Positions 1-25,800 of a stretch of 64,000 nucleotides of DNA are shown here, in pieces (the first letter of the stretch is position 1; the number at the start of each line of letters is the position of its first letter). Below the pieces are notes generated by a model. That model saw only the letters and a program-made list of their open reading frames with translations, made no database searches and was not told the DNA's origin. The position numbers and the translations under genes are program-made. The DNA is from Blasia pusilla (lineage: Eukaryota): the NCBI GenBank assembly GCA_050084515.1, contig CM114271.1, positions 12,772,001-12,836,000 of the forward strand. The letters run 5' to 3'.

Positions 1-2436
1 GTTGGTGCGACCATACCGCCGGGAGGCCATCAATGTCCTCATTGTCAGGTATCCTCTTTCAGCGTTGGAGTGTGTCATGCATACGTATTTTTCATTGTGT
101 ACGACTTTAGCTCTACGTCCGAGTAGACCAGGCTGGCAGTTCATGTTGGCTCCCATATTCATCCTATTATCAGTGCAATTCAGAGACACATCAAGGAGGA
201 TGTGGCAAAGAAAGTGGCCGAGGTACACAGAAACTCTCCGAGATCAAAGCCCGGAGTGATCAAGTTAACAATAACATTACAAATTTGTGAACAATTGCTT
301 GGAATCCCTGGGCAGGGCGAGATCACGGCTGTTGAGGAGAAACAACTATGGGGAAATCTTGTTGGTCCTAAATACTTACGGAACTTTCTGCGTCAAATAC
401 GAGTACTTGATGGAAAGACGGCCAAAATGACACCATTTCCATAATCAAGGCCAACTCCAGATTTCCATTTATTTAGAGATGGCAATTCATGGGCCAAGGA
501 GGTGAAGGATCGAGGGCTTATGTCTTCAAAATATCAACTACATGGCCGTCCAATGGCCTTGATCTATAAGATCGAGGCCACTCGACGAGGCCAAGATCGA
601 ATGAGGGAAGGGGAAGATCTCTACGGCAGATGAGTAAGCTTTGATATTTGCTACAGAGTGCTGAATGGATGGTTGATCATGGGTGCTCACATTTACAACC
701 ATGTGGAGAAGGGACTCAAAACTATATTTGTCTGTGAGGTAAAAGCAGAAGACGTTGGTAGTTTGAAGATGTGTTGGTTACTCTTATTGGAGGTGGTGAA
801 GGAAAACAAAAGGCCACTTGTGGAAATTTATGGATTCATGGCGGACAATTCACAACCTAGATGGATTGCTATCAAGGAAGGGTTCTGGGGTGGAGAGGTT
901 AAACTAGAGAGGGAAAGGTCGGATGCTTTCCATTGGCAACAGTCTATGACCCGATACACCAAATCTTCCATCAAGGAGAATAAGAGAACAAAGCATGTCA
1001 CTCTACTCCATTGCTCTCAGGACAACAAAACCTTGAAAAAGGCCATGGAGTGCCAAGAAGAACTTTATGGAAGGTGGAGGAAGCATGCAATTGAGGGGAA
1101 GTACAAAGAGTTGTGCTCTTGGCTCAGTGGGTGGACTGTACGAATGAGACATGTTGAGAATTTTTTGAAAAGCTCATGTTTCGAGCTAATGTTGAAAATT
1201 GTTTGAAAAGATGTAGCTAAAGTTGAGAAGCGTGGGAACTATAGGGATTTCAAACCGTAGAAACCAAACAACCCGTCGGATACGATTGGTTGTCTAAGTG
1301 TGCAACCCGTCAAAAACGGACACGTTGCATCAAGAATGTTTGTGCAACCCGATGGAACTTGACTAGTTGCATGAGTGTCACACCCGTCGGAGCCCGACAG
1401 GATGCATGAGGAATGTTTGTGCAACCCGTCAAAACCCGACTAGTTGTATGGATGTGCAACCCATCCAAACCCGGCGGGTTGCAAGTTGCATGTATACAAG
1501 GCTTGCAAATAGTTTGATCCGCATGGGTTGCAAGCCGCAAGGCTGAGATTTAACTCGCTCCGCAGCCCATCAGAATCTGACAAGTTGCGTCTGTCTGCAA
1601 CCTGTCGGATTCTGACTAGTGCGTTTGTATCCGAATCCTCACATTTAGACAGGTTGCGGCTGTCTCCAACTCCTCGCATCTAGACACGTTGCATCAATGC
1701 AAGTTAATTGGAACCCGTCGAATTCCGACAAGTTGCAAAGCTTCGTGTGTGGACACTTCTTGCAAGCCAACGGAATCTGACAGGTTGCACAAGGATTTTT
1801 GAGACCAGACCGGCCTGCTTCTCACAACCCGTCTAATTTCAACGAATTTTAGTAGCAGGTTCCTGGGTGTTGGGTTGCAATAAGAGGTTATTGGGACATT
1901 TCAGGGATGCCTACAACTTGTAACCCGTCTAAATCCAACGGGTTGCATTAGGTGGTTCCTGGGTGCTGAAACACGTCAAAAAATGGCGGGTTGCACAATC
2001 ATTCGTGGGATGCCTCGGATTTTTTCTTCGCTTATAAAGCTATATTCGTTCCTTTTTCAGATTTCCGTCGTTGCAGGGATTGAACATTCATGGAAATGGC
2101 CTGTGCCCTAACACAAGTGGAGCACAGAATGTTCATTCCTCTTGGAGGTCATGACAAGCATGCCAAAGAATTTCACTTGTGGAGGCATGCCAACAAGACC
2201 ATGCAAGAGCAATGCTACGGTCTGCACCATCCCATATCTTCCTCACAAAAGGCATAACTAAAGGAAAGGGGCCTTCGATTTACAAGCTCTATGTCAGGGC
2301 GACTGTAAGATCCGGTGATGAGAAACTCTATGTGGAAGCCTTCAATCGGTGCGTAGTAGGAACTTCCCTCGAGCAAGACGTACACATTGGTGGGGATATT
2401 CGTGGGCGTGTTTCAAGACGTTCCATACAGATGGTG
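1..2436 (+). pseudogene. MULE transposase copy A, N-terminal/central part (frameshifts and stops; intron about 1.17-2.06 kb)
   Basis: RLAVHVGSHIHP (WRKY/GCM-like HxH end), xVSFD, GFMADNS and SDAFHWQQS (DDE-core and CxxH-position motifs). After the acceptor TTTTTCAG at 2060 comes PNTSGA. Confidence 0.75.
1269..1995. repeat. Cluster of degenerate 27-bp palindromes in the transposase A intron
   Basis: Copies at about 1269, 1302, 1344, 1379, 1421, 1456, 1562, 1597, 1710, 1762 and 1920. Confidence 0.85.
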
Positions 2437-2856
2437 GAGGTGCGGTAAGAGGAGAGGAAGAGAGGAAGAGAGGAGAGAGGAGAGAGGAAACTACCCTCAA
2501 CCAAAAGAGATACTTTTTTTTTAAGAGAGATTCCTGTGATTTGAAGAGAGTTTCCGTTGGGTGGAAGAGAGGAAAATTTTTGTGTGATTTTTTTTGCACT
2601 TTTCTGCTCAGTTCTTAAGCACTTCCACAATTTTTTTTTTCTTCCACATTTTGGCAACCCCTCTGAGTCCGACGAGTTGCAAATTGCACAAAATTTAGAA
2701 ACTGAAAAATCAGTGGAATCATAAGTGCGGAACCAATCACTTTTTCCATCCAAGGTCTGAAAAAGTCTATCATTTTCACTTGGCTGAATAGAGTTTAAGC
2801 TCAAAGTGAAGGTTCTGGAAAAATGAAAGTACAATCTAAAACCTCATTTTGCTTCC

Positions 2857-5800
2857 TCAAAGTGGTTTGTTTAAAATACTTTGCACTTCTTTGAAGGACA
2901 GAACTGGTTGGTGGATTCCTACTCCTACCTCCGACTTTCTTAAAACTACAAGCAACACATAGTACATGTGCTTACAAGGGAAATACCTTTTGCCTCTTGT
3001 CTCTCTTTGGACAAAGTCAGCACATGAACATGTGGGAAAGCAACAGATGTGCACCACATACACCCATGTGACACTTGAATTTACAGTGTTGTTCGTGAAC
3101 CAATACATCCTTCCTATTCCATTGCCACTGTGGACATCTTTTGTGGCGATGATCTCCATTTTTGCCTCTCAAGCTGATGCAATTCGCTTTGCTCTCTCCA
3201 CCGTTGGCAGCCTGATAAGACTTGCGGAAAGCACAAGATTCATTTGGGCAGAAGAAGAACTTCAATTGATCCCCAGTCCTTGTGAAACGATCAAAGGTTG
3301 TGAGTCCCCAAAACCGAGGCAGTCGTCATCCAGTCCTTGTACAGTTCTTATTTAGGAAAGTTCCGCATACTCTCCTAATGCCATCAGATCCTTCCCTGCA
3401 AGTGGATCCACGTCCAGGGTTGCTCCAAATATATGCCACCATTTCAGATTGCAATCCACCTCCATGAACAGAATCCCATATTGTTGAGCCACCCCAGCGA
3501 TCGGATGTTGCGAACTTCCAGGAACGGAGGGCTTTTGAAATAAAACATTCATTGATTTTGGAGATGTAACTCCATCACAGATTTGGGAGCAATCCAGGGT
3601 CCCCGAATACTTGGGTGGCGCAATTTCCTCATCAAAATCAATCACCAGATTCGTTCCTCGATGCTGCCTCTTCACCTGCCTGAAGTCAAGATACTTATCT
3701 CGTCTCCACTAGTCTCGTTCGGACTACTCTACCACCATCTGTATGGGACGTCTTGAAACGTCTTGCTCGAGGGGAGTTCCTGCTACGCATCGATTGAAGG
3801 CTTCCACATAGAGTTTCTCATGACTCGATCTCACAGCCACCATGACATAGAGCTCGTAGATCGAAGGCCCCCTTCCTTTTGTTATGCCTTTTGTGAGGAA
3901 GATATGGGATGTTGCAGATTGTAGCATTGCTCTTGCCTGGTCTTGTTGGCATGCCTCCACAAGTGAAATTCTTTGGCATGCTTGTGACAACCTCCACGAG
4001 GAATGAACACTTTCTGCTCCACTTGTGTTGGGGCAAAGGGCATTTTCATGAATGTTCAATCCCTGCAACAACGACACTGTGAGAAGGGAACCAAAATAGC
4101 TCTATGAGCAAAGAAAAAAGCTATTGTCGAAACAACACGGGTTGCAAGTCGGAGGCATCCCATGAATGACTCTGTAACCCGTTGGTTTCTGACGTGTTGC
4201 AACAACCGGGAACCACATGGTACAACCCGTCGGATTTCGACGGGTTGCAAGTAAATTTGGCCATGCGACTTGCAACCCGTCCTTTTCTGACTGGTTGCAC
4301 TCTCAAGCAACCTGTCAACCCGTCTGATTCCGACGGGTTGCAAGTAAATTTGGCCATGCGATTTGCAACCCGTCGGCTTTCGAGTGGTTGCACACTCAGG
4401 AAACCCGTCAATAAGCGACGGGTTGAACACTGAGGGAGGCAACATGTCGCATCCAACAAGTTGTTTGGTTTCTTCGGTTTGAGATCCCTATAGTGCCCAC
4501 CCTTCTCACCTTAAGCTACAACTCTTCAAAAAAAATTCAGCGAGACAAATAAGTGAACTCACCTCCCGCATGAAGTTTCCCCATTGTCTCATTCGTACAG
4601 TCCATCAACTCAACCAAGAGCATAACTCTTTGTACGTCCCCTCAATCGCATGTTTCCTTCACCACCCATGAATTTCTTCTTGGCATTCCATGGCGTGTTT
4701 CAAGGTTTTGTTGTCCTTGCAGCGTTGGAGTAGAGTGACATGCTCCGTCCTCTTATTCTCCTTGATGCAAGATTTGGTATACCGGGTTATAGACTGTTGC
4801 CAATGGAAAGCATCCGACCTTTCCGGTTGAACCTCCCCACCCCAAAACACTTCCCTGATAGCAATCCACCCAGGTTGTGCATTTTCCGCCATGAACCCAT
4901 AAGTTTCCGGAGGTGGCCTTTTTTTTTCCTTTACCACCTCCAATAAGAGTAACCGGCACATCTTCAAATTGCCAACGTCTTCAGCTTTTACTTCACAGAA
5001 AAATATAGTTTTGAGTCCCTTCTCCACATGGTCATAAATATGAGCATCCATTGTCAACCATCCGTTTAGCACTATGTAGCAAATATCAAAGCTTACCCAG
5101 CTACCGTGAAGATCTTCCCCTTCCCTCATTCGATCTATAAGATCGAGGCCACTCGACGGACGTGTCGTTGATATTTTGAAGACATAGGCCCTGGATCCTT
5201 CGCCTCCTTGGCCCATGAACTGCCATCTCTGAATGAATGGAAATCTGGAGTTGGCCTTGATTCTAGCAATGGCATCCATTTCGGCCGTCTTTCCATCCCA
5301 TACCCGTATTTGACGTAGCAAATTCCGGAAGCATTCAGGATTAGCGAGAAATGCGAGATTTTCCCATAGTTGTTTCTCCTCAGCAGCGGTGATCTCGCCC
5401 TGTCCAAGGATTCCAAGAAATTTTTCACAAATTTGTGATGTTGTTGTTAGCTTGATCACTCCGGGCTTTGAACCCGGAGAGTTTTTGAAGACCTCGGCCA
5501 CTTTCTTTGCCACATCCTCCTTGATGTGTCTCTGAATTGCATGGGTCACAAGATGAGTGTGGGAGCCAACATGAACTGCCAGCCTTGTGTACTATGACGT
5601 GGAGCCCAAGTCGTGGACAATGGAAAATATGTATGCAAGACACGCTCCAATGTAGAAAGGGGATGCTTGAAAATAAGGACATCGATGGCCTCTTGGCGGT
5701 ATGGTGGCACCCACCTCATATGGAGTTTCTGCATTCTTGGGGGGGAATTGCGACGTATTGACCCGCCCGTTGCGCTCTATATACATGCATGATGGACTTC

Positions 5801-6569
5801 TATAATCCAAGGCTCCAACGCATTGGCGGCGGGAGACAATCCAAGGACCATCTGGAATTGAAGCACTAGTCCGTTGAAGCCTACACCATCGATGACAATC
5901 AGACTTTCTGTCCATATCCTTCAAGCGTCCTCCATCTTTCTTTTGAGCAAGAGCAGTAAGTGGAGGCAACTAAAAAATACAATTACCATCATACGTGGGC
6001 GGAAACTTGTCGACAAGAATGTGCTTGAACATTTTCAAGGCCAGAGACGATAGCAAACTATTTCTTGATATTCGCAAGAGGAACAAATAGGCAGACAAAG
6101 GGCCTGATTGGTGTTCGACCGATTCAATGAGATTGAAAACATCGGGAATTTCTTCAGGAAGTACAACATTGTAACGAACGTGTGAAGTTGGAGTCGATTC
6201 CGGATCTACTGAGCTAGGAGTTGCAAACGTAGAGCTCAGTGCACTAGGAAATTCTCAACCGTCTACTTGGGAAACAAAGGAATTCAGAGGCAAGCCGTTA
6301 ACTTTGTATTGACCATTTGCTAGAGGTAGGAGATTCCATACTTTATGGTCTGCAATTACAAGTTGGATTGTCTCAGCTATTCTATACTCTGTACCGTCCA
6401 CCCTAACATCCTTGGACACAAAGATGGTTCCAATTTGGAGAAGAAATCGAACTGAGAGAAAATTTTCATCCACAGGTATGAAAGACTCACGAGCTTGCGG
6501 TCGAACGATTTCTGATTGAGGAAGGGCCGCTAGATGACTGCCACAAGTGAGTTTCACATAATTATCCAT
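2857..6569 (-). pseudogene. MULE transposase copy B (Zn-finger DNA-binding region, DDE core, SWIM); 2 exons, disrupted
   Basis: ORF pieces 6255-6599, 5592-5969, 4659-5549, 3724-4077, 3352-3675 and 2857-3159 read as one protein. Motifs: WVSFD, FMAEN (D in copy A), AFHWQQS, NTSGAESVH (third acidic residue), PTCSC...PCKH. Intron 4562-4077 (AG|GTGAGT ... TCACAG). The start codon is tentative. Confidence 0.8.
4130..4430. repeat. Cluster of 27-bp palindromes in the transposase B intron
   Basis: For example 4222 ACAACCCGTCGGATTTCGACGGGTTGC; also 4272, 4315, 4365 and 4401. Confidence 0.9.
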
Positions 6570-6756
6570 TCCCAAAAGATTCCACCAGGAGGAGACCAAG
6601 AATAAGAATTAGGATAAGAATGGGTATGGGAATGAGAATGAGAATGAGAATGTTCAATTTATAGTGAATAGGGACTCAGATTCTCCTGACAAAATTTGAC
6701 TGAAAAGATGAAGATTGGTAGGTGAGATTGTTTGACATGATGGATTCAATTCTGTT

Positions 6757-7440
6757 GCAACCTGTCGGAGTCCGATGGGTTGCAAAATTTGGGAATCACA
6801 GACGTGGGTTACGAAGCACCCAATTCCGTTTTTTGTTTCCGTGTGCCAATGCAAATTGGAAGCCGTCAGAGTTCGTTGGGTTGGGACCCCCTTCATGCCG
6901 ACCAATGCTCTTTTGAGACGATTTTGCTAGCATCAAGCACAAGACATCGCTTGCATTTGCTAAGGTAACTAATCGCTGGGGACTATTACGGGATTGTCCA
7001 ACTCAAGGTAGACCTTGTGACCCGTCGGATTGCAAGAGGTTTCGTGGGAACTATCCGTTGTCGCATTGTTACCCGAGGAATAGAAAAGAGTGCAACCTAT
7101 CTGTAACCGACGAGTTGCCCAAGTACCTTGCCTATTACCCCAAGATGAGGGAAGCGTGCAACCTGTCGACCTCTGACGGGTTGCGCAAGTGCCTCGCCTC
7201 GTAACGCTTACATGAAGGAAGCGTGCGACCCGTCGGCCTCCGACGAGTTGCGCAGGTACCCCGCCTTGTTATCCCAAGACGAGGGAAGGGTACAACCCGT
7301 CGGTCTTCGACGGGTTGCGCGGGTACCTTGCGTTCTTCGCCCAAGACGGCAGAGGCGCGCAACCTGTCAGACTCCGACGGGTTGCTAAGACAGCTCGGCT
7401 AGGAGGGATGCCTCCAACCCGTCAAAGACCGTCGGGTTGG
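6757..7440. repeat. Palindrome cluster between the divergent genes, including a 67-bp tandem array
   Basis: Palindromes start at 6757, 7018, 7092, 7158, 7225, 7292, 7359 and 7414. The period is 67 bp from 7158 to 7359. Confidence 0.9.
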
Positions 7441-7529
7441 TGGTTTTCACGTACAGACCTCCATAACAGCCGACACGTCATCGTCGGAACGACGGTGCGA
7501 CCCAACGGTCAGCCCAACGACTCGAAAAG

Positions 7530-7537
7530 TATAAATA
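7530..7537 (+). promoter_or_regulatory. TATA box of the cargo gene
   Basis: TATAAATA, followed by a pyrimidine-rich stretch, about 250 bp upstream of ATG 7779. Confidence 0.55.
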
Positions 7538-7632
7538 GGCTAGGGTTCGCTCATTTCAGGTTTTTCGTTTCGCGATCTCGATTGCTCTTCAGCGCAGCAG
7601 CGGACCAGATACCAATGGGCGCCTTACACAAC

Positions 7633-7728
7633 GACTCATCGCGAGACTCATCCCAAGACGATTCAAGCGACTCATCAAGGTGACTCATCAAGGCAACTCA
7701 TCCGAGTGACTCATCAACGCGACTCATC
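7633..7728 (+). repeat. Seven (G/A)ACTCATC motifs, mostly 12-13 bp apart
   Basis: Starts at 7633, 7645, 7669, 7682, 7695, 7708 and 7721. Confidence 0.85.
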
Positions 7729-9020
7729 ATGCACAGAAAGTAATTTCGTTGTCGAGGAGGTGGCATTTTTCGGGAATAATGACGAGGAAAAAAAGTCAGG
7801 CAAGCAAGGCTGGGAGCTTCACTCCCAAGTCTAGGACTCGTGCGTCACCATCTCTAGGGCCTCATTCGGCCAATGAGATAAGGCAGCAAGAGATCAAGGA
7901 GCGCGAAAGGGAAGCGGAGATGCACAGGTAGGATCTTCTTGCAAAATGTGTTAAGGAGACGATTGAAAAACAAAACGCAGAGGCCAAGGCATCGCAGGCC
8001 TTGAAGAAAAGGATCTCCGAGGAGAAGCATGAAAAGAAGCGTGTGGACGTGTTGGTGAGGAGAGCGAAATTGACAAAATCTTGAAAGGAAAAAGGATGCC
8101 ATTGAAGAAAGCCCGCCCATCCAACCAAAACTGTTGAGATGCAGGAAATGTCTTCGATGAAGTCCGGGGAAACAATCAATATAAAATCGGCTAAGGAAAC
8201 GGGCAAAGTTCAAGTGACGAATGATGAGGTCATGAGGACCGCCTGCGTGGAGATGGTGGACATCTCTGAAGAAGCAGGAGAGCAATCTTCCTCGTCTCTT
8301 AGCCCCGGGGAAGAAATCGACCTCTATCAGATAGACGAGTTTCCACTGGACTTGCCAACTACTGTCCCAGAGCAATTGGCAGGCCAAGACACCAACCCAA
8401 TCTTCGAGCGGGTAAGATACGATCTTTGTTCTTTGAGTTATGTGAAGGCCCATGTTGCAATTCATTGGCAATTGAGTGTAGTTTATTGACCTTATCCCCG
8501 TTGTGATAGGTGGTAAAGTAGATGGCAATGATGGAGGGCCAAAACGCCCCGAGAATTCCACTTTTCCAATTGTAGACAATGGAGTACGTTTGCAAAATTC
8601 AATCTGACGAGGATATTGCGAAGCTGAAATAATCAGCAGCGACAACATCCTACGTTGATAGCTTCCCTACGTTCTATGTTCAGCATTACGATGAACATGG
8701 AACCCAAACGCTAGGTACGGAGGAGGACTTGGAAGCTCTCGAAACATTCTGGAGGATGAGAGATCAGGAATTCATAAGGGCGATTGAGGGGACGGAATTC
8801 AACTGGATGCGGAATCTGTATTTCTTCATCTGGGATGGAAACCACAAGTTCATGGCGTGGACCCAGTTTGCAGAGGAGCGCCAAAACTCATTGGAGGCGC
8901 ATTTCTGCGTGAAGGCAGTAGTGCTACATCCATACCCTCATCACATGGCGACGGTGGAGATGGCCATGTATACCATGAACACGGCTCCACCAACTCTCCT
9001 TTTCCTTTATTTTGATTGCT

Positions 9021-9667
9021 GCAAACCGTCGGACTCTGACGAGTTGTTTAACTAATGGTAACAAAACATCAGATGCCTTAAAGCAACTCGTCAAAGTCCG
9101 ACGAGTTGCTTGACTGGCTGCAATTTTTAGGATGTTTTAGGCTGAAAGCAACTCGTCGGAGTCCGACGAGTTGCTCGACTGGCCGCTGTTTTTATGATAT
9201 TTTTGGCCGAAAGCAACTCGTCCAAGTCCGACGAGTTGCTCGACTGGCCGCTGTTTTTAGGATGTTTTTGGCCGAAAGCAACTCCTCGGAGTCCAACGAG
9301 TTGCTCGACTAGTCGCTATTTTTAAGATGTTTTTGGCCGAAAGCAACTCGTCGGACTCCGACGGGTTGCATTCGTTGGCACGAGAAGGTGATCAGAGTAG
9401 GGGCGCTTGATTTTTGGCATCAAATTGCAGCTTTACTTGAAATTGGGCAACGTGTCGGACTTCGACGGGTTGACATGTTCACTTTTCCCGTGGAGACCAC
9501 TCTTTGAATACAAATTATCTGACAACCTTTCAGAGTCCAACGAGTTGAAACAAGGCAATCACAAATCTGAATGCAATCCGTCGGACTCCGATGGGTTGCA
9601 AAATTTAGCTCATAGCTACCATTCTGACCATGAGGTGTGACGACGTGTCGGAGTCCAACTGGTTGCA
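9021..9667. repeat. Palindrome cluster in cargo-gene intron 1, including a 5 x 65-bp tandem array
   Basis: Array palindromes start at 9083, 9148, 9213, 9278 and 9343. Further copies at about 9021, 9447, 9521, 9573 and 9640. Confidence 0.9.
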
Positions 9668-11789
9668 GGAACCCATGTAGCTTGCAAAATTTCTTATATT
9701 GAATTTGGATGTGCAAGATTGTATCCGAGGGGAATGTCACCCACCATTGGATACAGGATTGCGATCAGGGGAAGAAAGTGCTAACGATGCACCCGAAAGA
9801 GTACAAGGGGTTCTTGGGCAACGCCCTTGTAAATGAGATGCTGGCAAAGGGGGCTCAAATAAAAAAAAGACTTGGGCAAATAAATTTATTTCCCAAGATG
9901 CAGCTGTGACAATCCTTTGCTGGTCAAAGATACAGACGGCCAAGAAGAGCGCTTCATTGGGGTCGGAGCGGAGGTAGAAAGTGTATGTATCTGAGCGTGC
10001 TAAGTTCATCCAAGCTGCAGTATCTGCAACTACGAAGTACACTGCAAGAAAGATCCAGGGCTACATCGCCATTCTCAACCCCGAACTTGGCCTCGATTTC
10101 TACAAGGAGCTCAAGGCGATAATCAAGCGCCAGCGGAAGAGAGATGAAGATCCGTAGGGTCCGATTGGGGAGAAAGTGTCTCTCGACCGCGTCCATCGAT
10201 TTGCCTCGTCTGGAATTTCGGAATTTAGGAGAATCCGACTGATGAAAATCAGTCTCGAGGGCACAGAGGCCCAAAAGAGGGTGGCACACCATCCTCCGGG
10301 TGTCTCTGATCCAGTGATCTCCCACAGGCTCTGTGAATGGTCATTATGGGACGCGTTGCGGCTTCTCGAGAAGTCTATGCTCGTGGGTCTCCAAGCGAAG
10401 CTAAAAAAAATAGAGGCAGTTCCAAAGGAAGCAAACCTAGAGAGTGCTGAAGATTTTGAACTTTGGATGGATGACATCCAGGACAAGCTCATAAAAAATC
10501 CAGGCTTCATGACGATGTTCAAGGATCACATACTCCCTCATGTGGACCTGATGAAGAAATAGAGGCAAAGAAAAGGGATTTCGCAAAGAAAAAGTGAGAT
10601 CTTCAGGAGCAGGCGGCCGATGCATCTTGACTAAGAGCTGCCCGACGCATGGTGTTCAGGTACCTTGTCCATTGTAAGAATGCAGGTACGTGGCAAAAAA
10701 TACCGGCAGCCTCCAAATTGTGGGCTTCTCCACCTAATGGAGAGACATTTTCCATGTACGACGTGGAGATGGCTCAAAGCATCTCTGACTGGGAGGTGGA
10801 GAATTGCCCCATCTGGTTGGACTTCAACGACCCTGAGGACATAACCAAGAAAAATCTACGCCTGCTGATGCAGTGGCCGCAGGTAGGGACGACATCCCCA
10901 ATTTCGTGCAGCCTGAAGACTTTTTCGAAGGAGATGGGGAGAAGCAAGCCCTCGAGACAGCGGAGTTGGTGTCCAAGGTCGTCACCGCCAAGGACAAATC
11001 TACATCGGGTCTCAAAGCCAAGGCGAGGGGATCGAAGAATTCCGAGGCCAAGTCTTCCCAAAAAGAGGCTGAAAATTCAAGGCGAGAGGAAAAATTGTCC
11101 GGGCAAGTGGGGAGAGAGGGTCGGACCAGGTCCTCCGCAAAAAAAACTCCACCAAAGTCTGAGGTAATAGAGACCCCAACAACCCGACTGCAGACTCGGG
11201 AGAAGCGGAAGTGAGAGGCACCAGGTTTGTCCCAAGGAGTAGACAAGGATGTGGAATACACTCCATCATCCTTGGGAAGACATAGAGAAACAACGACCCG
11301 GACAAGCATCATCATTCACTGAACGAATCTTATGGATGAGTTGCAAAGTTTCAATTCCCAAGCGTTGACACCCGCCATCGACAAATTGACAATGCTGGGA
11401 CGTAAGCTTCAACGAAACGGGCACGCTCCCAGGACGGTCCATGGGGAGGTTGAGGAGGTGGCGGTGGATCTCCTCGTCGCTGATTTGCCCTTGGGATTGC
11501 GCTTGTGGGACGAGAATCCGTCCGACGGTGTCCTAGACTGGAATGTCACTCTTTCTTATGACCAGATCCCGCTCCTGATTTCCTTTGAAAACACTTATCT
11601 CAGTGACACGGGCTATTTTTTGGTCTTGACAGGAGGGAGCAAGGATGAGCTCTTCAACCTACAGTGCGTCAAGAGGTTGCTGAAGTGGAGGACGGCGCAA
11701 TCGTGGGTCATCAAGAACAAGTACCCACTCCGATCCGCGACGAGTCAAATCCGGGTAAGGGCTCTAAATCCATATCCAAATTGTCTTGC

Positions 11790-12110
11790 TCTCACGGGTT
11801 GCATCTCTGCATGCAACCCGTCCGATTTTCTGAGTTGAAGACTTCGGTGGTGCAATCTGTCTGAAAGCAACGGGTTGCAAATTTACCGCAAGTCTCCATT
11901 GGGTGAATGCAACCCGTCGGAACTCGACGGGTTGCAAGTGCGTATGCTTTTCCTTGTGTTTTTGGAATGATGCAACCCGTATGAATGCGACGGGTTGCTC
12001 TTAGCCAACCATGGGCTGCTCTAAGCCAACAACCTGTCGCCTTCCGACGGGTTGCTCATGGCAAAAAGAATCACTAACACTTGTAAAACAACCCGTTGGA
12101 CTCTGACATG
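11790..12110. repeat. Palindrome cluster in cargo-gene intron 2
   Basis: For example 11909 GCAACCCGTCGGAACTCGACGGGTTGC; also 11812, 11852, 11972 and 12029. Confidence 0.85.
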
Positions 12111-12788
12111 TAGCTCCAATGTTAGGACTATAACTAAGTTCTCTGGGGTTAAGCGAAGCTCTTTGGGAACAAGTTGCACATTGTGCCACCATTCTGATAG
12201 TATACCTTTCTTGTTGTTGCATACAGAAATTAGCACTTTCTTGTTGTTGACATTTTTTCCAACCTGCTTCTTTAAAGATGGACCACTCCTTTGTCTACAA
12301 TTTTGTAAGGCCTGAGCACAACTTCAAGTGTTTTAGATCCTTGATCTAGTGGATCCATGCTCCGATGGGTATAGCTTAGATAATTTATACAACCCCCCCC
12401 CCCCCCCCCCCCCGGGAATTTACATGCAAAATGGTACCCCCTTACTTGGAGGAAGGGAAAAGTCGCCAACGTTGATGCAAACACTCATCGAGCTCTGTTC
12501 AAGGCCGAGTGACTTGGTGTTCGACTTAGTGGGCCTTTCAAGGGCGAGTATCAGAGGCGCCTCGCAGAGTGGAAGAACATTCTCTGCCTTGAGGGAAGGC
12601 ATGAACTATTTGACCTTTGCAAAGGGGCAAAGGCAGATTATGACAGGCTAGTTGGGGCGTACAACTCTCCTCCGAAGCCGAGAGCTCCGGTTCCAGACCC
12701 ACCATTGGTAGTGATACCATCGTCACTTCCCACGATTTTGAAAATTGGGAGGGCAAGGCCGACAATAATTTTGGAAGAGCTCTCGGAC

Positions 12789-13890
12789 GATGACGAGGCA
12801 GAAGAATTCATAGAATAGATCAAATGTACAGTTCCGAGCTTCCTTCAGATGTAATAAAGGACAAGATTTTTTCGAACGATGATGGTGTTTGTAAAAGGTT
12901 GCTAAATATCTTTTTTGGTCTTGTCAATTGTGATTGTCTATGTACTCTGACAGTTCATATTGCAACCCGTAGGATTGCCACGGGTTGCAACTTTTCACTT
13001 TGTGACCACTGCACCTTTTTAACCACTTCCAAGCAACCTGTCGGATTCAGACAGGTTGGTTGCGTGAGTGATCAGACTCTTTCCCTGTTAGTCCAACTTT
13101 ACAGGCATTCTGGTGGGCTTCTTCACTTTGGCACCTTCCCCTAGTTTTTTCAAACAAGTCTTAGGCTTCCTCTCTTCTCTAAGACGTGTTGGATTCCTAC
13201 TACCTGGCTGAGGACATGATGGTGTCTCCAAGGACGGAGCACATATTGATACTTGATGGGTATAACCTTGCAGAGCGTACAAGATTTACTGCCGAGGAAG
13301 GCGGTGGGACTCAAATCAATTTACATGGGACCGTTATGGTGTACCTAGGGGGTTGCCAAGGCTCTCGAATTTGCCAACATTTTTATCCCCGTCTACAATC
13401 GGCCACAAGAGCCACTTGTATCCCAAGACATTCCTTTTGTATAGGAACCTAGGAGAGTTGGGAGTAAAGTTGTAGATGACGAGGCTGAAGAAATCATAGA
13501 CTAGATCACATGTATATTTCCGAGCTTCCTTTGGATGTAATAATGGACAAGATTTTTTCAAACGATAATGGTGTTTGTAAAAGTTTGCTGAATATTTTTT
13601 TTGGACTTGTCGATTGTGTTCGTCTAGCTACTCAGAATGTTTATTTTGCAACCCGTCTGATTCCGACGGGTTGCAACTTTTCACTTTTTCACCACTGCAA
13701 CTTTTTAACCATTTCCAAGCAAGCTGTCGGATTTTGACAGGTTGGCTGCTTGAGCGATCGGAATCTTTCCCTATGAGACCAACTTCTGAGGCATTGTGGC
13801 AGGATTCTTCACTTTTGGCTCGTTCCCCTAGTATTGTCAAACCAGTCGTAGGCTTATTTTCTTCTCTAAGACGTGTTAGATTCCTATTGC
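12789..13890 (+). repeat. Diverged direct duplication of about 410 bp (12789-13200 and 13475-13890), each copy with two palindromes
   Basis: GATGACGAGGCAGAAGAATTCATAGAATAGATC... versus GATGACGAGGCTGAAGAAATCATAGACTAGATC..., colinear through ...CTCTAAGACGTGTT. Confidence 0.85.
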
Positions 13891-14583
13891 TTGTCGGATT
13901 GCCATTTTGGATTCCCAATCATTTGGATCTTCGTGGGTGCAGGGTGGAATGGAATCACTTCTCAAAATCTTTCCTTTGTTATGGTGAGTTTGCTTGCAAG
14001 GGGTGCAAGCCATCTGATTCCGACGGGTTGCAAGAGTTGCAACCTGTAAAATTCCGACGGATTGGGAGGGATGCAGCTTCTCGGTTTCTCAGCTTTAGGA
14101 TCTGAATGAAGGAACATCAATTCCTCTTTACTCCAGACAGCTAACAATCTTTTGGTTCAATTATTGTCTCATGTGTACACATTTCACAAAGTTGGTCTTT
14201 ATTTGAACCTTTCATTGAGATGAGATTGCTACTTTTGGTCACATTATTTGCCAATGGTCCTCCAAAAAAATAGCCTTGGGCACAACTTAGTGTAGATTTA
14301 GACAGAAAATGTGAAAAAACTTAGGCTCACATGGAGAGTGATGGGAAAATGTTTGTAGTGGTCTTATGATGTCTACTAGTTTTTTGCCCCCTAGAAAAAG
14401 GAGGTTTCTTTAGGCCCGAACGTGGACCACTACCTACTCTCTTCTAAAGATTTCATGAATTTGAAAGCAAACAAAAATTTCAAATATGTCAAAAAGTTTT
14501 GAAAAGAGGAGGCGGATTTGGCCCTTTTTTTTAAAAAGAGACTCTCCTCTCTTCCTCTCTCCTGCCAGAATACCAGCCCCTGG

Positions 14584-15734
14584 GATGGTGGTAGAGCAGT
14601 CCGAGCGAGACTCGTGAAGACCATATAAGTATCTTGACTTCAGGCAAGTGAAGAGCTAGCATCAAGGAACAAACCCAGTGATTGATTTGGATGAAGAAAT
14701 TACGCCGCCTAGGTATTTGGAGACCCCGGATTTCTCCCAAGTCAGAGTAGAAGGAACTTCTCTAAAATCAGTGAATTTTTTATTTCAAAAGCCTTCCGTT
14801 GCTGGAAGTTTGCAACATCGAGTCTATGGGTTAGTTCAACAGTATGGGATTCCGGTCACCAAGGTGGATTGCAACCTCAAAAGGTTGCATATATCTTGGA
14901 GCAACCCTGGATGTGGACCCACTTGCAGGGCAGGATCTGATGGTATAAGGAGAGGATGTGGCACTTTCCTAATTAAGAACTGTACAAGGACTAGATGACG
15001 AGTGTGTGGCTTCGGGGAACTCAAAACCTTTGATCATTTCACGAGGACCGGGGATCAATTGAAGTACTTCTTATGCCCAAATGAATCCTATGCTTTCCGA
15101 AAGTCTTATCTGGCTGCCATTGGAGCTCTAGGGAATACCCCACGATTTGGCCCATTGCCACAGGTACAAATTGCACTAAGGACAAAGTGGACAATCTTAC
15201 AAGTGACTGTTTTAGACTCGTAGACGGAGGAAGTTCGATGCATGTTCGCATTACAGAGACCTTTGCATTTCGGATTCAACCCAAGATTGATGTCAACATG
15301 TATTCGGAGAAGGTGGATGATCTCAATCCACTATTTATGTTTGAGTCTAGAAATGGGATGAAGAGAAAGAGAATATGTAGGCCAACAGTGGAGAGAGCAA
15401 AGCAAATCGCACATCAGCTTGGGAGGCAAACATGGACATCATCGCCACAAAAGATGTTTAGAGTGGCAATGGAATAGGAAGGATGTAGTGGGTCAGGAGC
15501 AAAACTGTAAATTAAAGTGTCACAGGGATGTATGTGGTGCACATATGTTGCTTTCCCACATGTTCTTGTGGTGACTTTGTCCAAAGAGAGACAAGTGGGA
15601 AAAGGTATTTCCCTTGTAAGCACATGTTTTATGTGTTGCTTGTAGTTTTAAGACAGTCGGAGGTAGGAGTAGGAATCCACCAACCAATTATGTCCCTCAA
15701 AGAAGTGCCAAGTATTTTAAACAAACCACTTTGA
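14584..15734 (+). pseudogene. MULE transposase copy A, C-terminal part with SWIM zinc finger
   Basis: Homologous to the reverse complement of 3740-2857. PTCSCGDFVQRETSGKRYFPCKHMFYV is a CxC-xn-CxH SWIM finger. Stop at 15734. Confidence 0.8.
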
Positions 15735-16501
15735 GGATGCAAAATGAGGTCTTAGATCTGATTTTCATTTTCCAGAATCTTCACTTTGAGCTTGAACTCT
15801 ATTCAGCCAAGGGAAAATGACAGATTTTTTCCAGACCTTGGATGGAAAAAGTGATTTGTTCCACATTTATGATTCCAATGAATTTTCAGTTTTTTAAATT
15901 TTGTGCAAGTTGCAACACGTCGGATTCAGACGGTTTGTCGAAATGTGGAAGAGGAAAAAAATTTGTGGGAATGCCTAAGCACTGAGAATAAAAGTGCAAA
16001 AAAAATCACACAAAAAGTTTCCTCTCTTCAACCAAATGGAAACTCTCTTTAAAAAAAATCATCTCTTTGGGTTGAAGGTAGTTTCCTCTCTCCTCTCTTC
16101 CTCTCTTCCTCTCCTCTTACCGCGCCTCAAGTGTTGGGTAACTACCACTTGGGCTCGCCCTAGCGTCGACGGGACAAATCACTCTGTCTTGGGGTTTGGG
16201 GTGATCTTACTCGTGAGTGCATGAGTGAACTTAGTGACGCGCCTAAGTTGAATACGAGAGCGACCCAAAAGTAGTACGAATTGTGTACCATGTAAACAGG
16301 CGGGATGTTTACGAGTTGTGAGCCAAGAGAATTCTTAGGTAGCAAACTTAGTTAGCTTATTTGATAGGTTAGACCGGTTGAGAATTGGTCTAAGCTCATC
16401 GAAGAGGAGATGCTAAACGATGTTAAGTGTTGCACGCAAAAACCTAAGACTTAAGCCAAAAGAGGAATTTTAGGTTGGCTACTAAAATTAAGAAGGACAC
16501 A

Positions 16502-16925
16502 GAATGGATCGGGAGTTTTGGCATTGGGATTCGAAACCCAAACCAAGTCCAATAGAGTAGATTTTGGGGTCCCTATTGGATTCCAACTCGTGCCTCATAT
16601 TGTTGAGTCTCAGTTGGAGGCTCATGTGAGGTCCATTGGACAATTGGGACCGCTAGGCACGCAGACGCTGTTTTTGATGTCTGGACTAACCAAAAAGTTT
16701 GTCCCAAGTCTCGGAAGACTTTCCTTTATTGGGAGACTATGAATGAGGGAAGGTTGATCTTGATGAGGTGCCGAGTCGAGGACTTAGTGGGTTTGAAGGC
16801 TGCTTGACCCAAGCCACACTAATGTAAGTACATTTGGGTGTTGGTTGGTGATGAGAGCGTGTCCTATTGAACATACGCTTGTGCAACACTAAGATTGATG
16901 TTCGAGGGAAGAAGGCACACCAAAA
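16502..16925. repeat. Dispersed repeat (probably LTR-retrotransposon LTR sequence), homologous to 40425-40845
   Basis: Shared GAATGGATCGGGAGTTTTGGCAT...GGGATTCGAAACCC..ACCAAGTCCAATAGAGT, colinear to AGGCACAC. Confidence 0.7.
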
Positions 16926-18192
16926 ATAGGGGATGCCCCCCTTTTTTTCCACGCCGGTTGTAGCCTTCACATACTCGACTCTTTGAGTCCCCCCTTTTTT
17001 GTATTCCGTATGGGTTCTCAATCACCCACTTTTTATCAAGGTTGCTTGTTTTTCACATATCTTTATATCCAACCACCTTCAACCATCATCCGCTATTTGT
17101 TTGTCCAAACCAACTCTTAAGCGTGTTTGTATCAAAGGGGGCCTAATCCTAGCAACTACCCTATAGTGACTTCAATGTGAAGCCATGGTTAACTATGATC
17201 TTTGAATTTTTTTGGAGACATTTTGCTTAGTCACCAATTCGTATCTACCAAAATTTCTAAATATGATATTTCTAGGGTGTGTTAAAATTTATTTGCCTCT
17301 TAGAGTAAGGCTCTACTTATTGAGAATTGAGGTGTTTTGTGGTTTAGGTGTCACATCTTAGTTAGTAGATAGGTAGAGTTCTAACGCATCGAGGACATAG
17401 AGGGTCAACTAGTTGTTTGGGTGTAATTTTGTCTCGAGATATCGGATGAGGTTGGCGACAAGTCCGTTGTGTCAGGAGTTTTTTTGGGGGATGGCTATTT
17501 TTTTGGGGAAGAGCCTTTTGGCCCTTTGCAATGCTATAAGAGAGGGAGAGATGGATTTACCAAGCCATCTTTCTCATGTTGAGCCTTTGGAGCACCTCTC
17601 TAGTTACTTGTATGTGTGAGTTTATGAAGAAACTAGGGTACTAGCTTCTGGATTCCCTCATAGCAGAGGGTGGATGTGGCTCAATATGTCGATATAGATT
17701 TAGGAGTGGAGTTTCAGGTTGGGTCAGCCATTTTTACTCTGATTTTTTGTGCAGTCTCGGTGTATATGCATAAGTGTATTTGGTTTATGGGTGGATCAAC
17801 CCGTGTGTTGGTAAGATCGGTACTGTATGGTATGACGATATGACATGGGATGTGGATTGTGTAGCGATGTGTATACGCACGACAGGGATTTGATTTTGAT
17901 AATAGGGTGTCCTCTTGATTCTCAAATTCCTTCTTTAGCTTGTTTTGTTATTCAATAATGAAATGCCTTAAGATAATTGGATCACACATTTTGGGGTAAT
18001 AATAGATACTTATCATAAGCTAACAAGAAATAGGTTCATACTTGTTCATTTAAATTTTAGAGAATTTTACATGCATGGACATATGAGTTTTACAAGATTG
18101 GATCTCTTTAACATCCATACAATTTTTTACTAAGATAAGAGTTTTGACACCCAGTGAAAGAAAATGTACCTAGAAACCTCCCATAAATATTA

Positions 18193-22841: not shown

Positions 22842-25800
22842 TTGAGTTACCTACCGCTCTCCCTATTCCGGGTGAACTATTGGAAGGTGTACATGAAGTG
22901 CTTGAGAATACTTCCAGTCTTCCCCATCCTTGGGGATGAAGTAATGTCAAGAGTAGGTCATGTGTCTTCCACCTCTAATGGAGTTGTGTTACCTATAGAA
23001 AATACCCCACTACCAAATGCTTCTATAATTCACCAGGTGTCTAATGTTGATAGGATAATAAGGGTAAATTCCTTAATTAATCTTGTAAGGAGACCAAATT
23101 TCCAAGAAAGTGATATTAGGAAGTTGCGATTACACAAGAGTTTGAGTCCTACTAGTGGTCGTCATACATTGGGTTCTATGATAGAAATATGCCCATCATG
23201 TTGTGCCTTACATTGGAAATGTGAAATGGTGAAAGATACAAAGTTTATCGACTCACCATATGACATGTGTTATGGCCATGGGAGAATACATTTTCCCCTC
23301 TTGAAATTTTCTCCTATATTTCTGATTTCGGGTGTTGGTCCTAGAAGTCTTCATTTCCTTAAACATTCTCGAGCTTACAATTCCGTGCTTCAACTTGCAC
23401 CTTCTGGTGTGCACGTAAATGAACAAGTTGGTGGCATTGGACACTTCACGATCCAAGGAGGGATCTATCATTCTATTGGACCCTTACATCTTGATATAGG
23501 GGGGCATCCCCAATTTGCTCAACTCTATATTCATGATACTGCGAATGAATTGGAGAATCATGGAAGATTTATGTCTAGATCTTCAGATCTTAACATGGAC
23601 ATCTTGAAAGGGCTACAAGAGATGTTGCATGAGTGCAATCCATATGTGAAGATCTTTTGTCATATGGCATATGAAGCAAGTGATCTTAATATACAGATCA
23701 TTCTCAAGGCAAGTAAGAGAGATCTTGATGCAAAGCGTTATAACTTACCAACTACTTCTGAGGTTGCGGAAATTTTACCTGGTGATGGAAGTGAACACGT
23801 TGAATATCGTGATATCATTGTATGACAACATGGAGGAGGAGTGAAGTGCATATCTGACCTCAATGAAGCATATATTCCATTACACTTTGCTCTATTATCT
23901 ATCTATGGTGAGCAAGGTGACATGTTGGAATATCCTACGGGAGACTCGAAGGGACTCGAAGACCCGAATATCTAGGTCATGTCACTCATGGGGAAGAAGG
24001 ACACATTGACGCTTCAGATGATTTTATGTAGGAGGAAAGATTTGCTGTTGATAATGTTGAGGAAAGAAGGTCAAAGAGTGATACCGCCTTACAATTTGCA
24101 TGTTTTCGACTTCAAACGCGGATTGGAGGTTAAGATGACAATCGGTTATTGCGATTTGGTTACTTACTCAAGAATATATGGTCGAAACTTATGCCAATGT
24201 AGAGATGCAAAGATTATCATGGGTCAAATTAAATGAGAAGGAGTTGAGGGCTGAATTATATCAAGGTTTAAGGATGCCATCCATCAACATGTTGTTGATA
24301 GTAGAAGGTTTGGGAGATACATAGTATTACCCTATTCTTTTATTGGAGGGCCACGTCATATGCATCAATTGAATCATGATGCAATTGCAATCGTGAGACA
24401 GTTGGGAAAGCATGACAGTTGGGAAAGCCTGACTATTTTTTGACCATGACATGCAATCCAAAGTGGAAGGAAATTACATCTGCCTCATTACCCTATTAAT
24501 CAGCTGCGAACCGACTCAATTTGGTCGTGCGAGTTTTTTAGAAGAAAAAGAAGGAGCTATTACGACTTATCATCAAAAATAAAATATTAGGTCGAGTTTT
24601 CGGATGCATCAATGTGGTGGAATTCCAAAAAAGAGGTTTGCCACATGTTCACATTTTTATTATTTTAGGTCTTGAGGATAAACCATGTACCACTTTTGAT
24701 TATGATCGTATCATTTCAGCAGAAATCCTAGATCAGTCTACCCATCAAAGGTTGTATTCTACTATTGCTAATTGTATGGTTCACGGTCCACGTGGACCAT
24801 TAAATCCCAATGCACCATGTATGGATAAGGAAACAAAAAAGTGTACCAAAGGCTATCCTAAAGCTTTTGCAGCCAACATGACAGAGACGGAAGATGGTTA
24901 CCCGATCTATCATAGGTAAGGATATTTTGATCTTGGCTTTTGTTTCTTGTATTTTTATTGTAAGCCATATAACATCCATGTAATCATGATTTTTTATATA
25001 TATTCTTAGATTGGAGAATGGAAGGGCAGTAACTAAGCATGAACATTCATTGGATAATCGTTGGGTCGTGCCCTACAATCCTATGTTGTGCACACTCTTT
25101 GATTGTCATAGTAATTTGGAGATCACAAGTAGTGTCTATGCCATGAAGTATTTATATAAATATGTATATAAGGGGTTCGAGGCGGTGACATTTAACGTTT
25201 TGAAAGATATGGATACATCCATCGCATTGGGAGTCATTGATGAGAGATCGTCATATATTGATGCGAGGTATGATTCTACTAATTGATGATTTTTTGTTGA
25301 CCTATGTGTTTCTAAATATCTTTTAGAATTTGATTTAGGGTCTTCTAATATATTCGACATTTTTCTTCCAGATATATATCTTGTTCAGAGGCATGTTGGC
25401 GACTCTTCAAGTTTAGTCTACATGTTGAACTTCCAAGTATTGTGCAATTAGCTACTCTTCTTCCATAGCAAAAAATGGTGTACTTCAATGATGTTGACTC
25501 TCCCGCAGATATTTTGCAACTAAATAGAGAGACAACTCTAACACAATGGTTTGCAACTAATCTATCCGACTCCACAGCCTGACAATATATGTATGTAGAT
25601 TTTCCTTCATATTATTGTTGGACTAAAAAGAGATGGATTTAGAGGGTACAAAAAAGAAATGGTTTTGGCCATCCCATTAGCCGGTTATACCTTACTCATC
25701 CAGGTGAATACCCAACAATTTATCCTATGCTTTTTTCTTTACATTGGATTTTCCTCTTATATTCATTCATTTTAAAGTGAGTGAATGATTGTGGAAAGGG

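Follow-up and report, generated by a model that had tools for sequence, protein, structure and literature searches.

The window analysed here is a 64,000-nucleotide stretch of the Blasia pusilla genome (GenBank assembly GCA_050084515.1, contig CM114271.1, positions 12,772,001 to 12,836,000 of the forward strand). Its first 16 kb contain two copies of a Mutator-like transposon, one nested in the other, and 54 degenerate copies of a 27-base pair (bp) palindrome that are spread in arrays over the noncoding parts of both. These arrays may well be recognition sites for a sequence-specific, probably dimeric DNA-binding protein encoded by the transposon itself, most likely the product of the accessory ("cargo") gene that it carries beside the transposase, and would then serve self-recognition for regulation or epigenetic modification. 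We give this reading about an even chance of being right. The evidence for it comes from the number and distribution of the palindromes, the anatomy of the site, the contrast between the sites and their flanks, and the candidate protein, and each of these is weighed below against the other explanations that could account for it. The coordinates of the features are collected in Table 1.

The palindromes are far more numerous than expected by chance and, within the window, are restricted to the transposon copies. A consensus scan with at most 9 of 26 positions mismatched identified 54 non-overlapping copies, all within 1268-15938 and none in the remaining 48 kb of the window, and five shuffled sequences gave 0-1. 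The full 27-bp pattern with at most three mismatches has 15 matches, all within 2654-14031, and none in 100 shuffles, while the outer arms (GCAAC-N17-GTTGC) with at most one mismatch have 39, all within 1302-14031, for an expectation of 1.55. In a weight-matrix scan all 54 windows scoring at least 10 bits fall in the first 16.5 kb, and the single additional match, at 50540, is weak and appears only at 8 bits. Tandem Repeats Finder also recovered three clusters, as tandem arrays whose periods are 93/50, 67 and 65 bp. Spacing within clusters ranges from 34 to 104 bp, and density in the introns and the intergenic region reaches 10-18 sites per kb. An earlier note on this DNA had reported by eye more than 40 degenerate copies, the positions of their clusters and their absence outside 1-16 kb; the count proved higher, every listed cluster was recovered, and no copy was found elsewhere in the window.

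The same note had taken the region for a single element, and here its view has to be replaced. A 12.1-kb element (A) has inserted, in the opposite orientation, into an older member of its own family (B), where it interrupts the transposase gene and is flanked by a target duplication of 7-8 bp. Sequence 1-2436 is homologous, up to its last position, to A's transposase gene read as the reverse complement (5711-3732), and this homology resumes at 14584. In a self-BLAST comparison, 4-1311 corresponds to the reverse complement of 5711-4417 (82%) and 2020-2381 to that of 4119-3758 (89%), while on the other side 3205-3739 corresponds to the reverse complement of 15119-14584 (84%) and 2540-3208 to that of 16053-15381 (89%). 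The sequence GATGGTG(G) is present at both 2430-2436 and 14584-14590, either as 7-8 bp exact or as 9 bp with two mismatches, and the equivalent place inside A (3732-3759) is uninterrupted. Target-site duplications of Mutator-like elements are usually around 8-11 bp. The transposase-side terminus of A (2437) matches that of B (16127); the cargo-side end of A has only a weak inverted match and a GA-rich tract. The terminal inverted repeat is weak. A single element with 1.3-kb terminal inverted repeats was also considered; it was rejected in view of the target duplication and the contiguous paralogous site, and the nesting merely mimics such repeats. The annotation of the locus is corrected accordingly, as there is no 1.3-kb terminal inverted repeat. 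Because A is nested in B, the two apparent transposase introns that hold palindromes are one intron seen in B and in A, and the two subterminal sites, at 2654 and 15912, are one site seen twice.

Element A comprises a transposase pseudogene on the minus strand, a divergent intergenic region, the accessory gene on the plus strand and a 3' noncoding region. GA-rich octamer tracts, (GAGAGGAA)n or its complement, are located 15-50 bp inside the element termini (2452-2489, 16083-16113 and approximately 14540-14565). These tracts occur also at the otherwise dissimilar cargo-side end of A, and may be the real terminal recognition feature. Differences between the paralogous parts of A and B amount to 242 transitions and 204 transversions without context bias, and mutation resembling repeat-induced point mutation was rejected on these grounds.

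The repeat unit itself is a discrete 27-29-mer with sharp edges. When the outward flanks of the 54 copies were pooled, information was found only at the first position on either side (A after and T before the palindrome, 65 of 108 flanks, 0.36 bit) and was at most 0.16 bit beyond it. Conservation within the unit is uneven and mirror-symmetric: A3, A4, T9, A19, G23, T24, T25 and G26 are conserved in 91-98% of the copies, positions 11-12 and 16-17 in 54-70% (C16 70%, C17 67%), and the central N14 in 37%. The mismatch per site is 0.11 in the outer arms (positions 1-5 and 23-27) versus 0.27 in the inner part (10-13 and 15-18), and 0.11 versus 0.26 at non-CpG positions alone. Heterogeneity among positions has a chi-square p of 3e-10 over the 18 non-CpG positions and of 2e-5 over A/T positions alone, values whose significance is overstated since many of the 54 copies are tandem duplicates and thus not independent. 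Base-specific mutation alone does not explain this pattern.

The two halves of the palindrome almost always occur together, with 60 of 62 half-site matches lying inside full sites and only two standing alone. We looked for covariation between the arms across copies and found none: pairing is 75.6%, compared with 76.4% in shuffles, and 448 of 500 shuffles paired equally well or better. An excess of double, compensatory changes between the arms was likewise not found. What is kept, therefore, is the match of each half to the consensus and not base-pairing in a hairpin, and the symmetry belongs to the consensus, as expected of two half-sites read by a dimer. These results bear directly on the proposal that the palindromes function as hairpins in RNA or DNA, be it as precursors of small RNAs within introns, as structural signals or in a similar role. 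Many sites are in presumed introns, so that they would be transcribed, and they can fold. However, the arms lack compensatory changes, no Rfam family matched within 1-17000, sites are also present in promoter and subterminal DNA that does not look transcribed, and a stem of 12-13 bp is short for a Dicer substrate. We regard this proposal as scarcely credible.

The contrast between the palindromes and the DNA next to them is strong between clusters and weaker among recent duplicates. Comparing the best copy of each of nine clusters, identity is 84% in the palindrome, a value somewhat inflated by the choice of the best copies, versus 28% in the next 30 nucleotides. Within the second presumed cargo intron the corresponding values are 71% and 24%, in the 67-bp array 78% and 48%, and in the 65-bp array 89% and 59%. 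In each of these comparisons the palindromes have outlasted the adjoining DNA, and in the second presumed cargo intron the spacers are randomised. These differences also have to be explained by the alternative that the arrays are passive internal minisatellites, in which a hairpin-prone palindrome multiplied by replication slippage and local copying, with neither a protein nor selection involved. Several features are in line with such an origin, namely the regular tandem arrays with periods of 65, 67 and 93 bp, the different number of copies in the same intron of B and A (15 versus 6), the stable single-strand folding of the best copies (-14 to -16 kcal/mol, as any palindrome would), the lack of additional palindrome conservation since A and B separated, and a mismatch spectrum that looks like ordinary decay, with 148 transitions to 115 transversions, similar to the paralogous flanks (242 to 204). 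Left unexplained are the presence of the same 27-mer in seven separate compartments with unrelated flanks, the randomised spacers beside persisting palindromes in one array, the position-specific conservation and the avoidance of coding-supported sequence described below. On balance, purely passive minisatellites appear unlikely.

Sharp boundaries and unrelated flanks between clusters would also be expected if the palindrome were a tiny independent mobile element, similar to a very small miniature inverted-repeat transposable element, that inserted repeatedly into the transposon. None of the 54 copies is surrounded by a target-site duplication, though, and the sole flank signal, T before and A after, extends the palindrome instead of forming a direct repeat. 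The absence of copies from the 48 kb of the window outside the transposon also speaks against independent mobility, and scans of public collections gave only single matches at chance level and no arrays. In metagenomes the degenerate pattern matched 93 loci, approximately the number estimated for chance, and no array; 67 of these loci have one site, 22 have none under a looser whole-site criterion and four have a second weak match. Viral contigs gave four single matches and no arrays. An independent mobile element of this kind is accordingly a very remote prospect.

The palindromes are found in the noncoding parts of the transposon. Coding support was defined by homology for the transposase and by open reading frames (ORFs) alone for the cargo gene. 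In the stretch 2437-16127, 42% of the bases are coding-supported, and the 39 palindromes, which form eight clusters, are all in the other 58%; by simple arithmetic, the chance that all eight clusters would avoid coding-supported sequence is 0.58^8, or about 0.013. Two of the 39 touch the edge of a coding-supported block, at 4174 and at 11776, the latter being the weakest copy. The earlier note's statement that there are none in exons thus stands for the clusters but needs to be qualified for these two sites. Direct inspection of the sequence shows no stop codon in the palindrome in any reading frame, and its avoidance of exons is therefore not due to stops. In the 3' noncoding region of A, the pairs 12962/13033 and 13648/13719 belong to a direct duplication of 411 bp (12789-13199 and 13475-13886, 85% identity) and are 71 bp apart in each copy. 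The array at 6757-7440 occupies nearly the whole gap between the divergent genes and stops approximately 90 bp upstream of a TATAAATA box at 7533.

The position of this array, the densest regular one, between divergent genes and immediately upstream of the accessory gene's TATA box, raises the question of whether the palindromes are host transcription-factor sites recruited as enhancers. The consensus has visible CCGAC/GTCGG cores, and the CCGAC in each half is what we take to be the DRE/CRT core (dehydration-responsive element/C-repeat) bound by DREB/CBF factors. Nevertheless, the best-kept positions are the outer CAAC/GTTG and T9/A19 and not the CCGAC core, where C16 and C17 are among the less conserved bases. 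In addition, a fixed inverted pair of 27 bp is much longer than a typical host-factor site, and most of the sites are in introns and the 3' region and not in promoters. Recruitment of a host factor is quite improbable.

The evidence on the transposase of A comes mainly from its relatives. The Atlas neighbours of a 310-amino acid (aa) block carry MULE (PF10551) and ZSWIM1-3 domains, and the ten best family-bearing matches share family or clan. Pfam, with E values up to 0.1, gave no PF10551 match for this block or for 10 of 11 relatives, and the eleventh matched unrelated families only. The SWIM family PF04434 matched 2857-3168 on the minus strand with an E value of 0.0077 and 16.2 bits, below the cut-off of 19.6 bits. 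A phmmer search of a library of 1.84 billion proteins identified 135 relatives of the block, the best with 37% identity. By tblastn these relatives cover 4530-6479 and 3778-4188 in A, as well as 1-1257 and 2068-2355 in B. A word-index search for longer proteins homologous to the block found none. The 650-codon frame at 4659-6608 (minus strand) is broken by three in-frame stops; as the relatives align straight across them, they denote a pseudogene and not an intron structure.

If the palindromes were binding sites of this transposase, for complex assembly or self-regulation, the accessory protein would not be involved. One palindrome is indeed located approximately 190-217 bp from the transposase-side terminus in both copies. 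The AtMu1 transposase alone is reported to activate cognate copies in a sequence-specific manner (bioRxiv 10.64898/2026.08.24.746577), and subterminal motif arrays bound by element proteins are described as classic in Spm. The distribution in A does not resemble a terminal arrangement, however: 36 of its 38 sites are more than 500 bp from either end, many of them 4-7 kb inside, the last 500 bp before the cargo-side end contain none (the closest one is 14039-14065, and the end is 14583), and the extreme termini carry the GA-rich tracts and not the palindrome. Binding by the transposase is consequently an improbable explanation.

The accessory gene provides a candidate for the binding protein. 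The transposase blocks are on the minus strand (2857-6608) and the cargo blocks on the plus strand (7614-12818), and there are palindrome arrays both upstream and downstream of the cargo gene as well as inside it. Its start codon is uncertain, and the ORF map has at least one frame break near 12590. Among the Atlas neighbours of the block at 8633-9055, a cluster of ParB N-terminal domains is at rank 11 (0.93) and DUF6551 at rank 20 (0.92). The block also contains the stretch ...WDGNHK..., read by eye, which presumably corresponds to the "DGxHR"-type strand of ParB; Pfam, PDB, PHROG, NCBIfam and PADLOC gave no match for it. Further downstream, residues 41-96 of the block at 12337-12651 matched DNA methyltransferases of PHROG (E values of 0.0046, 0.079 and 0.32), MTase_II of PADLOC (0.004, 0.0086 and 0.049) and PF01555 of Pfam (E value of 0.19, 12.1 bits for a cut-off of 26.7). 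The methyltransferase matches in the three libraries, of the N4/N6 type, are below threshold and weak but concordant. The block at 11323-11838, expected to hold the catalytic motif, had no match in Pfam, PDB, PHROG, NCBIfam or PADLOC. No Pfam family reached threshold in the scanned cargo blocks, and none matched the plant mobile domain. The PDB sequence search with three cargo blocks, at E values up to 10, returned nothing for two of them and two unrelated chains for the third (0.46 and 1.2), and a cargo block had no match among viral contigs. A fold search with the first cargo model returned only noise (best Z of 2.5) and gives no verdict on the fold. The accessory gene region starts with a part rich in serine and aspartate, which includes a 13-bp tandem repeat of 5.2 units (7663-7729); since 13 is not a multiple of 3, changes in its copy number would shift the reading frame.

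The anatomy of the region, the conservation statistics, the nesting of the two copies and their decay are direct observations, whereas binding by a protein, the identity of that protein and the effect of binding are inferences. Combining these observations, we infer that in the active ancestors of A and B the palindromes multiplied by tandem duplication in every compartment that tolerated them: the transposase intron, the divergent promoter region, the two presumed accessory introns, the 3' noncoding region and one subterminal position. By such dense clusters the element would be marked as "self" and recognised by the protein that it encodes. The foremost candidate for this protein would be the accessory one, with its ParB-like lead and sub-threshold N4/N6 DNA-methyltransferase matches. 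Its likely use would be for the element to regulate itself or to modify itself epigenetically (anti-silencing), as VANC does in the VANDAL elements of Arabidopsis. The earlier note had preferred a dimeric protein site to passive satellite DNA. In favour of that preference are the bounded unit, the uneven conservation, the contrast with the spacers, the paired half-sites without covariation of the arms and the avoidance of coding sequence. Its more specific observations also agree with the measurements: the outer arms are better kept than the centre, including at non-CpG positions, and the flanks differ between clusters. Less favourable to it are the lack of any sign of selection since the duplications and the contribution of CpG decay at the centre.

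These last two points belong to a larger set that weighs against recognition by a transposon-encoded protein. Both A and B are dead relics, given the stops in the transposase and the broken frame of the cargo gene. After A and B separated, and after the 411-bp duplication, the sites changed as fast as their flanks, with no sign of selection in the dead copies: the palindromes at 2654 and 15912 differ at 5 of 27 positions in a surrounding match of 89% identity, and for the two pairs in the duplication the differences are 7 in 54 positions, versus 26 in 160 in the flanks. Equal divergence is expected if constraint acted in the active ancestors and ceased when these copies died. Among adjacent units the excess conservation of the palindrome is not significant (Fisher p of 0.08 in the 67-bp array and 0.65 in the 65-bp array). 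The weaker central conservation is partly due to CpG decay, as CpG transitions make up 69 of the 263 palindrome mismatches, with G-to-A or C-to-T changes at CCG/CGG accounting for many of the rest; the non-independence of the copies has been mentioned above. Regarding the protein, the assignment of cargo exons and introns is presumed from ORF structure, none of the domain assignments in the cargo gene reaches a curated threshold, and the lead to ParB comes from a language-model neighbour list and a motif read by eye. In canonical ParB, moreover, it is not the N-terminal domain that recognises the sequence. Word-index searches for homologues of 11323-11838 (among longer proteins) and of 8633-9055 (among proteins of near length) found none, and single-sequence AlphaFold models of two cargo blocks are poor, with predicted local distance difference test (pLDDT) scores of 53, for the model used in the fold search, and 40.

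A more specific and considerably more doubtful possibility is that this plant Mutator-like family carries a bacterial-type protein with ParB-like and N4/N6-methyltransferase parts that docks as a dimer on the palindromes, as on parS-like sites, marks or shields its own DNA and thereby escapes silencing. Such a protein might write N6-methyladenine or N4-methylcytosine, or might block 5-methylcytosine at the four CpGs of each site. The earlier note had already guessed at a parS-like site; the ParB-like lead and the methyltransferase matches in the accessory gene and the algal transposons that pair such genes with inverted-repeat arrays lend it some substance, although the matches themselves are below threshold. 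If true, plants would have a second anti-silencing system based on self-recognition, one that evolved independently and was assembled from prokaryotic components. Recognition and modification of their own DNA are known in only a few transposons (VANDAL with VANC, Spm with TnpA and, by prediction, those with algal ParB-type accessory genes). The locus offers both a candidate site, long, symmetric and with a clear map of the important bases, and a candidate protein. It would also show how a transposon can build marks of "self" by multiplying a binding site wherever coding sequence allows.

Table 1. Features of the nested transposon copies and their palindromes (positions in the window).
Feature	Position	Strand	Remarks
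Copy B, 5' part	1-2436	+ (transposase)	Cut by the left edge of the window; split by the insertion of A
Palindrome array, transposase intron of B	1268-1994		15 degenerate sites, mean of 6.7 mismatches; between homology-supported coding blocks 1-1257 and 2068-2355
Target-site duplication, left copy	2430-2436		GATGGTG, possibly 8 bp; recurs at 14584-14590
Element A, Mutator-like, 12.1 kb	2437-14583		Boundaries from the target duplication and the break in B homology; 38 of the 54 palindromes
Lone subterminal palindrome in A	2654-2680		Corresponds to 15912 in B; lies 217 bp from the transposase-side terminus
Transposase pseudogene of A, MULE-like	2857-6608	-	C-terminal SWIM-like finger at 2857-3168
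Palindrome array, transposase intron of A	4174-4426		6 sites, 93-bp higher-order period; aligns with part of the array of B
Palindrome array, divergent intergenic (promoter) region	6757-7440		9 sites, 5 of them in a 67-bp tandem array
Accessory gene region	7614-12818	+	ORF blocks 8106-8489, 8633-9000, 10158-10562, 10631-11214, 11323-11780, 12337-12818
Cargo ORF block with ParB-N-like lead	8633-9000	+	...WDGNHK... stretch
Palindrome array, first presumed cargo intron	9021-9666		10 sites, 5 of them in a 65-bp tandem array
Palindrome array, second presumed cargo intron	11776-12114		6 sites, spacing 57-76 bp, unrelated spacers
Cargo ORF block with sub-threshold N4/N6 DNA-methyltransferase matches	12337-12651	+	Residues 41-96
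Palindromes, 3' noncoding region of A	12962-14065		6 sites as pairs 12962/13033, 13648/13719, 14005/14039
Copy B, 3' part	14584-16127	+	Starts with the right copy of the target duplication (14584-14590); ends at the transposase-side terminus 16127
Lone subterminal palindrome in B	15912-15938		Counterpart of 2654 in A

Regarding the rest of the window, a long open block at 47501-48352 encodes the core of SERRATE/ARS2, with an E value of 7e-89 to Arabidopsis SERRATE versus 3e-8 to the human homologue. Being much nearer to the Arabidopsis protein than to animal homologues, it places the window in a plant-type genome. The CpG observed/expected ratio is 0.66, that is, CpG is depleted. Helitron remnants occupy 24542-27381 (Helitron_like_N with an E value of 1e-8 and a PIF1 helicase with 1e-61; the helicase block matches Helraiser in PDB with 4e-37), and a fragment of a Copia-type retrotransposon with gag-pre-integrase, an SH3-like domain and RVT_2 is located at 62180-63894 on the minus strand. 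A dispersed repeat of 320 bp (16493-16809 and 40416-40735, 77% identity) lies just outside copy B and bears no relation to the palindromes. The second presumed cargo intron, with its 27-bp repeats and unique spacers of 30-40 bp, superficially resembles a CRISPR array; this candidate was rejected because spacing within clusters varies over the 34-104 bp given above and the plant-type SERRATE gene nearby indicates a eukaryotic host.

Several known systems resemble parts of this arrangement. As in bacterial parS/ParB, the site is palindromic and present in several copies, as parS often is, and would be read by a dimer, and the gene next to the sites has a lead to a ParB-type domain. The parS site, in contrast, has 16 bp and not 27, and the present sites belong to a eukaryotic chromosomal transposon with no evidence of a role in segregation; no ParA was seen, and none was looked for.

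The closest parallel in the layout of the sites is provided by the VANDAL elements of Arabidopsis. VANC21 binds a 9-nucleotide motif in vitro, and this motif forms tandem repeats in the introns and in the intergenic and terminal noncoding regions of VANDAL21 (Hosaka et al. 2017, PMC5735166), findings on the motif that are repeated by Sasaki et al. 2023 (PMC10398659). The tandem repeats vary between related elements, VANC6 uses a different motif, and VANC proteins have variable regions with tandem repeats (PMC5735166). VANC is described as dicot-specific and MAIN-like (PMC13547354). The present elements appear likewise to be plant members of the Mutator superfamily that carry an accessory gene next to the transposase, with weak or absent terminal inverted repeats and arrays whose copy number changes quickly between related copies (here 15 versus 6). 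All 54 palindromes are in intronic, intergenic or terminal noncoding regions, apart from the contact of two of the 39 in 2437-16127 with block edges, and they form tandem arrays with periods of 65, 67 and 93 bp; in this distribution they agree with the VANDAL motifs. On the other hand, the motif is a 27-bp inverted repeat, whereas that of VANC is an asymmetric 8-9-mer. At the level of sequence, the accessory protein gave no sign of homology to VANC, with no credible PDB match for three blocks (in a library that is younger than, and may contain, the VANC21 entry 9LNK cited in PMC13547354) and no plant mobile domain in Pfam. Motif binding and loss of methylation have been demonstrated for VANC, whereas here binding is proposed from the DNA sequence.

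Dense clusters of motifs are also decisive for TnpA of Spm, which requires them (bioRxiv 10.64898/2026.08.24.746577). As reported for TnpA, specificity comes from dense, element-specific clusters, isolated motifs elsewhere are not bound, and the motifs diversify with the lineages of the element, features to which the present arrays may be compared. Spm/CACTA elements are nevertheless a different superfamily, their motifs are 8-10-mers concentrated at the termini, and the binding protein is a transposase-derived helix-turn-helix (HTH) protein.

For the candidate protein, the nearest counterparts are the accessory genes of algal transposons. In the red alga Bostrychia, Plavaka elements encode PAG2, a PF01555 methylase with SET, and PAG3, a ParB-like protein with a 2-oxoglutarate (2OG) oxygenase, and tandem inverted-repeat arrays beside the ParB-like gene were proposed by the authors as binding sites (bioRxiv 10.1101/2025.02.11.637652). 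A Sola1 element of Ectocarpus encodes a protein of 1104 aa with ParB-like and DNA-methyltransferase parts on the strand opposite to the transposase (PMC12477816), and a survey by the Aravind group lists ParB-HTH fusions to adenine methylases in chlorophytes and chytrids (PMC4738411). Our limited search of the literature returned only the algal cases and this survey, and no land-plant Mutator-like element with a ParB/methyltransferase gene or with palindromic arrays in introns. The accessory gene of A shares with the algal ones its position on the strand opposite to the transposase and the tandem inverted-repeat arrays beside it. Compared by description only, it may also share a ParB-like N-terminal part and a PF01555-type methyltransferase part, both below threshold here. 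It differs in its carrier, a 12-kb Mutator-like element and not Plavaka/EnSpm or Sola1, in its host, which has a plant-type SERRATE, and in the distribution of the arrays, which extend across all noncoding compartments and not only next to the gene. As far as its sequence indicates, the locus would appear to resemble VANDAL in how the sites are laid out and the algal transposons in its candidate protein, the two being combined in one Mutator-like element.

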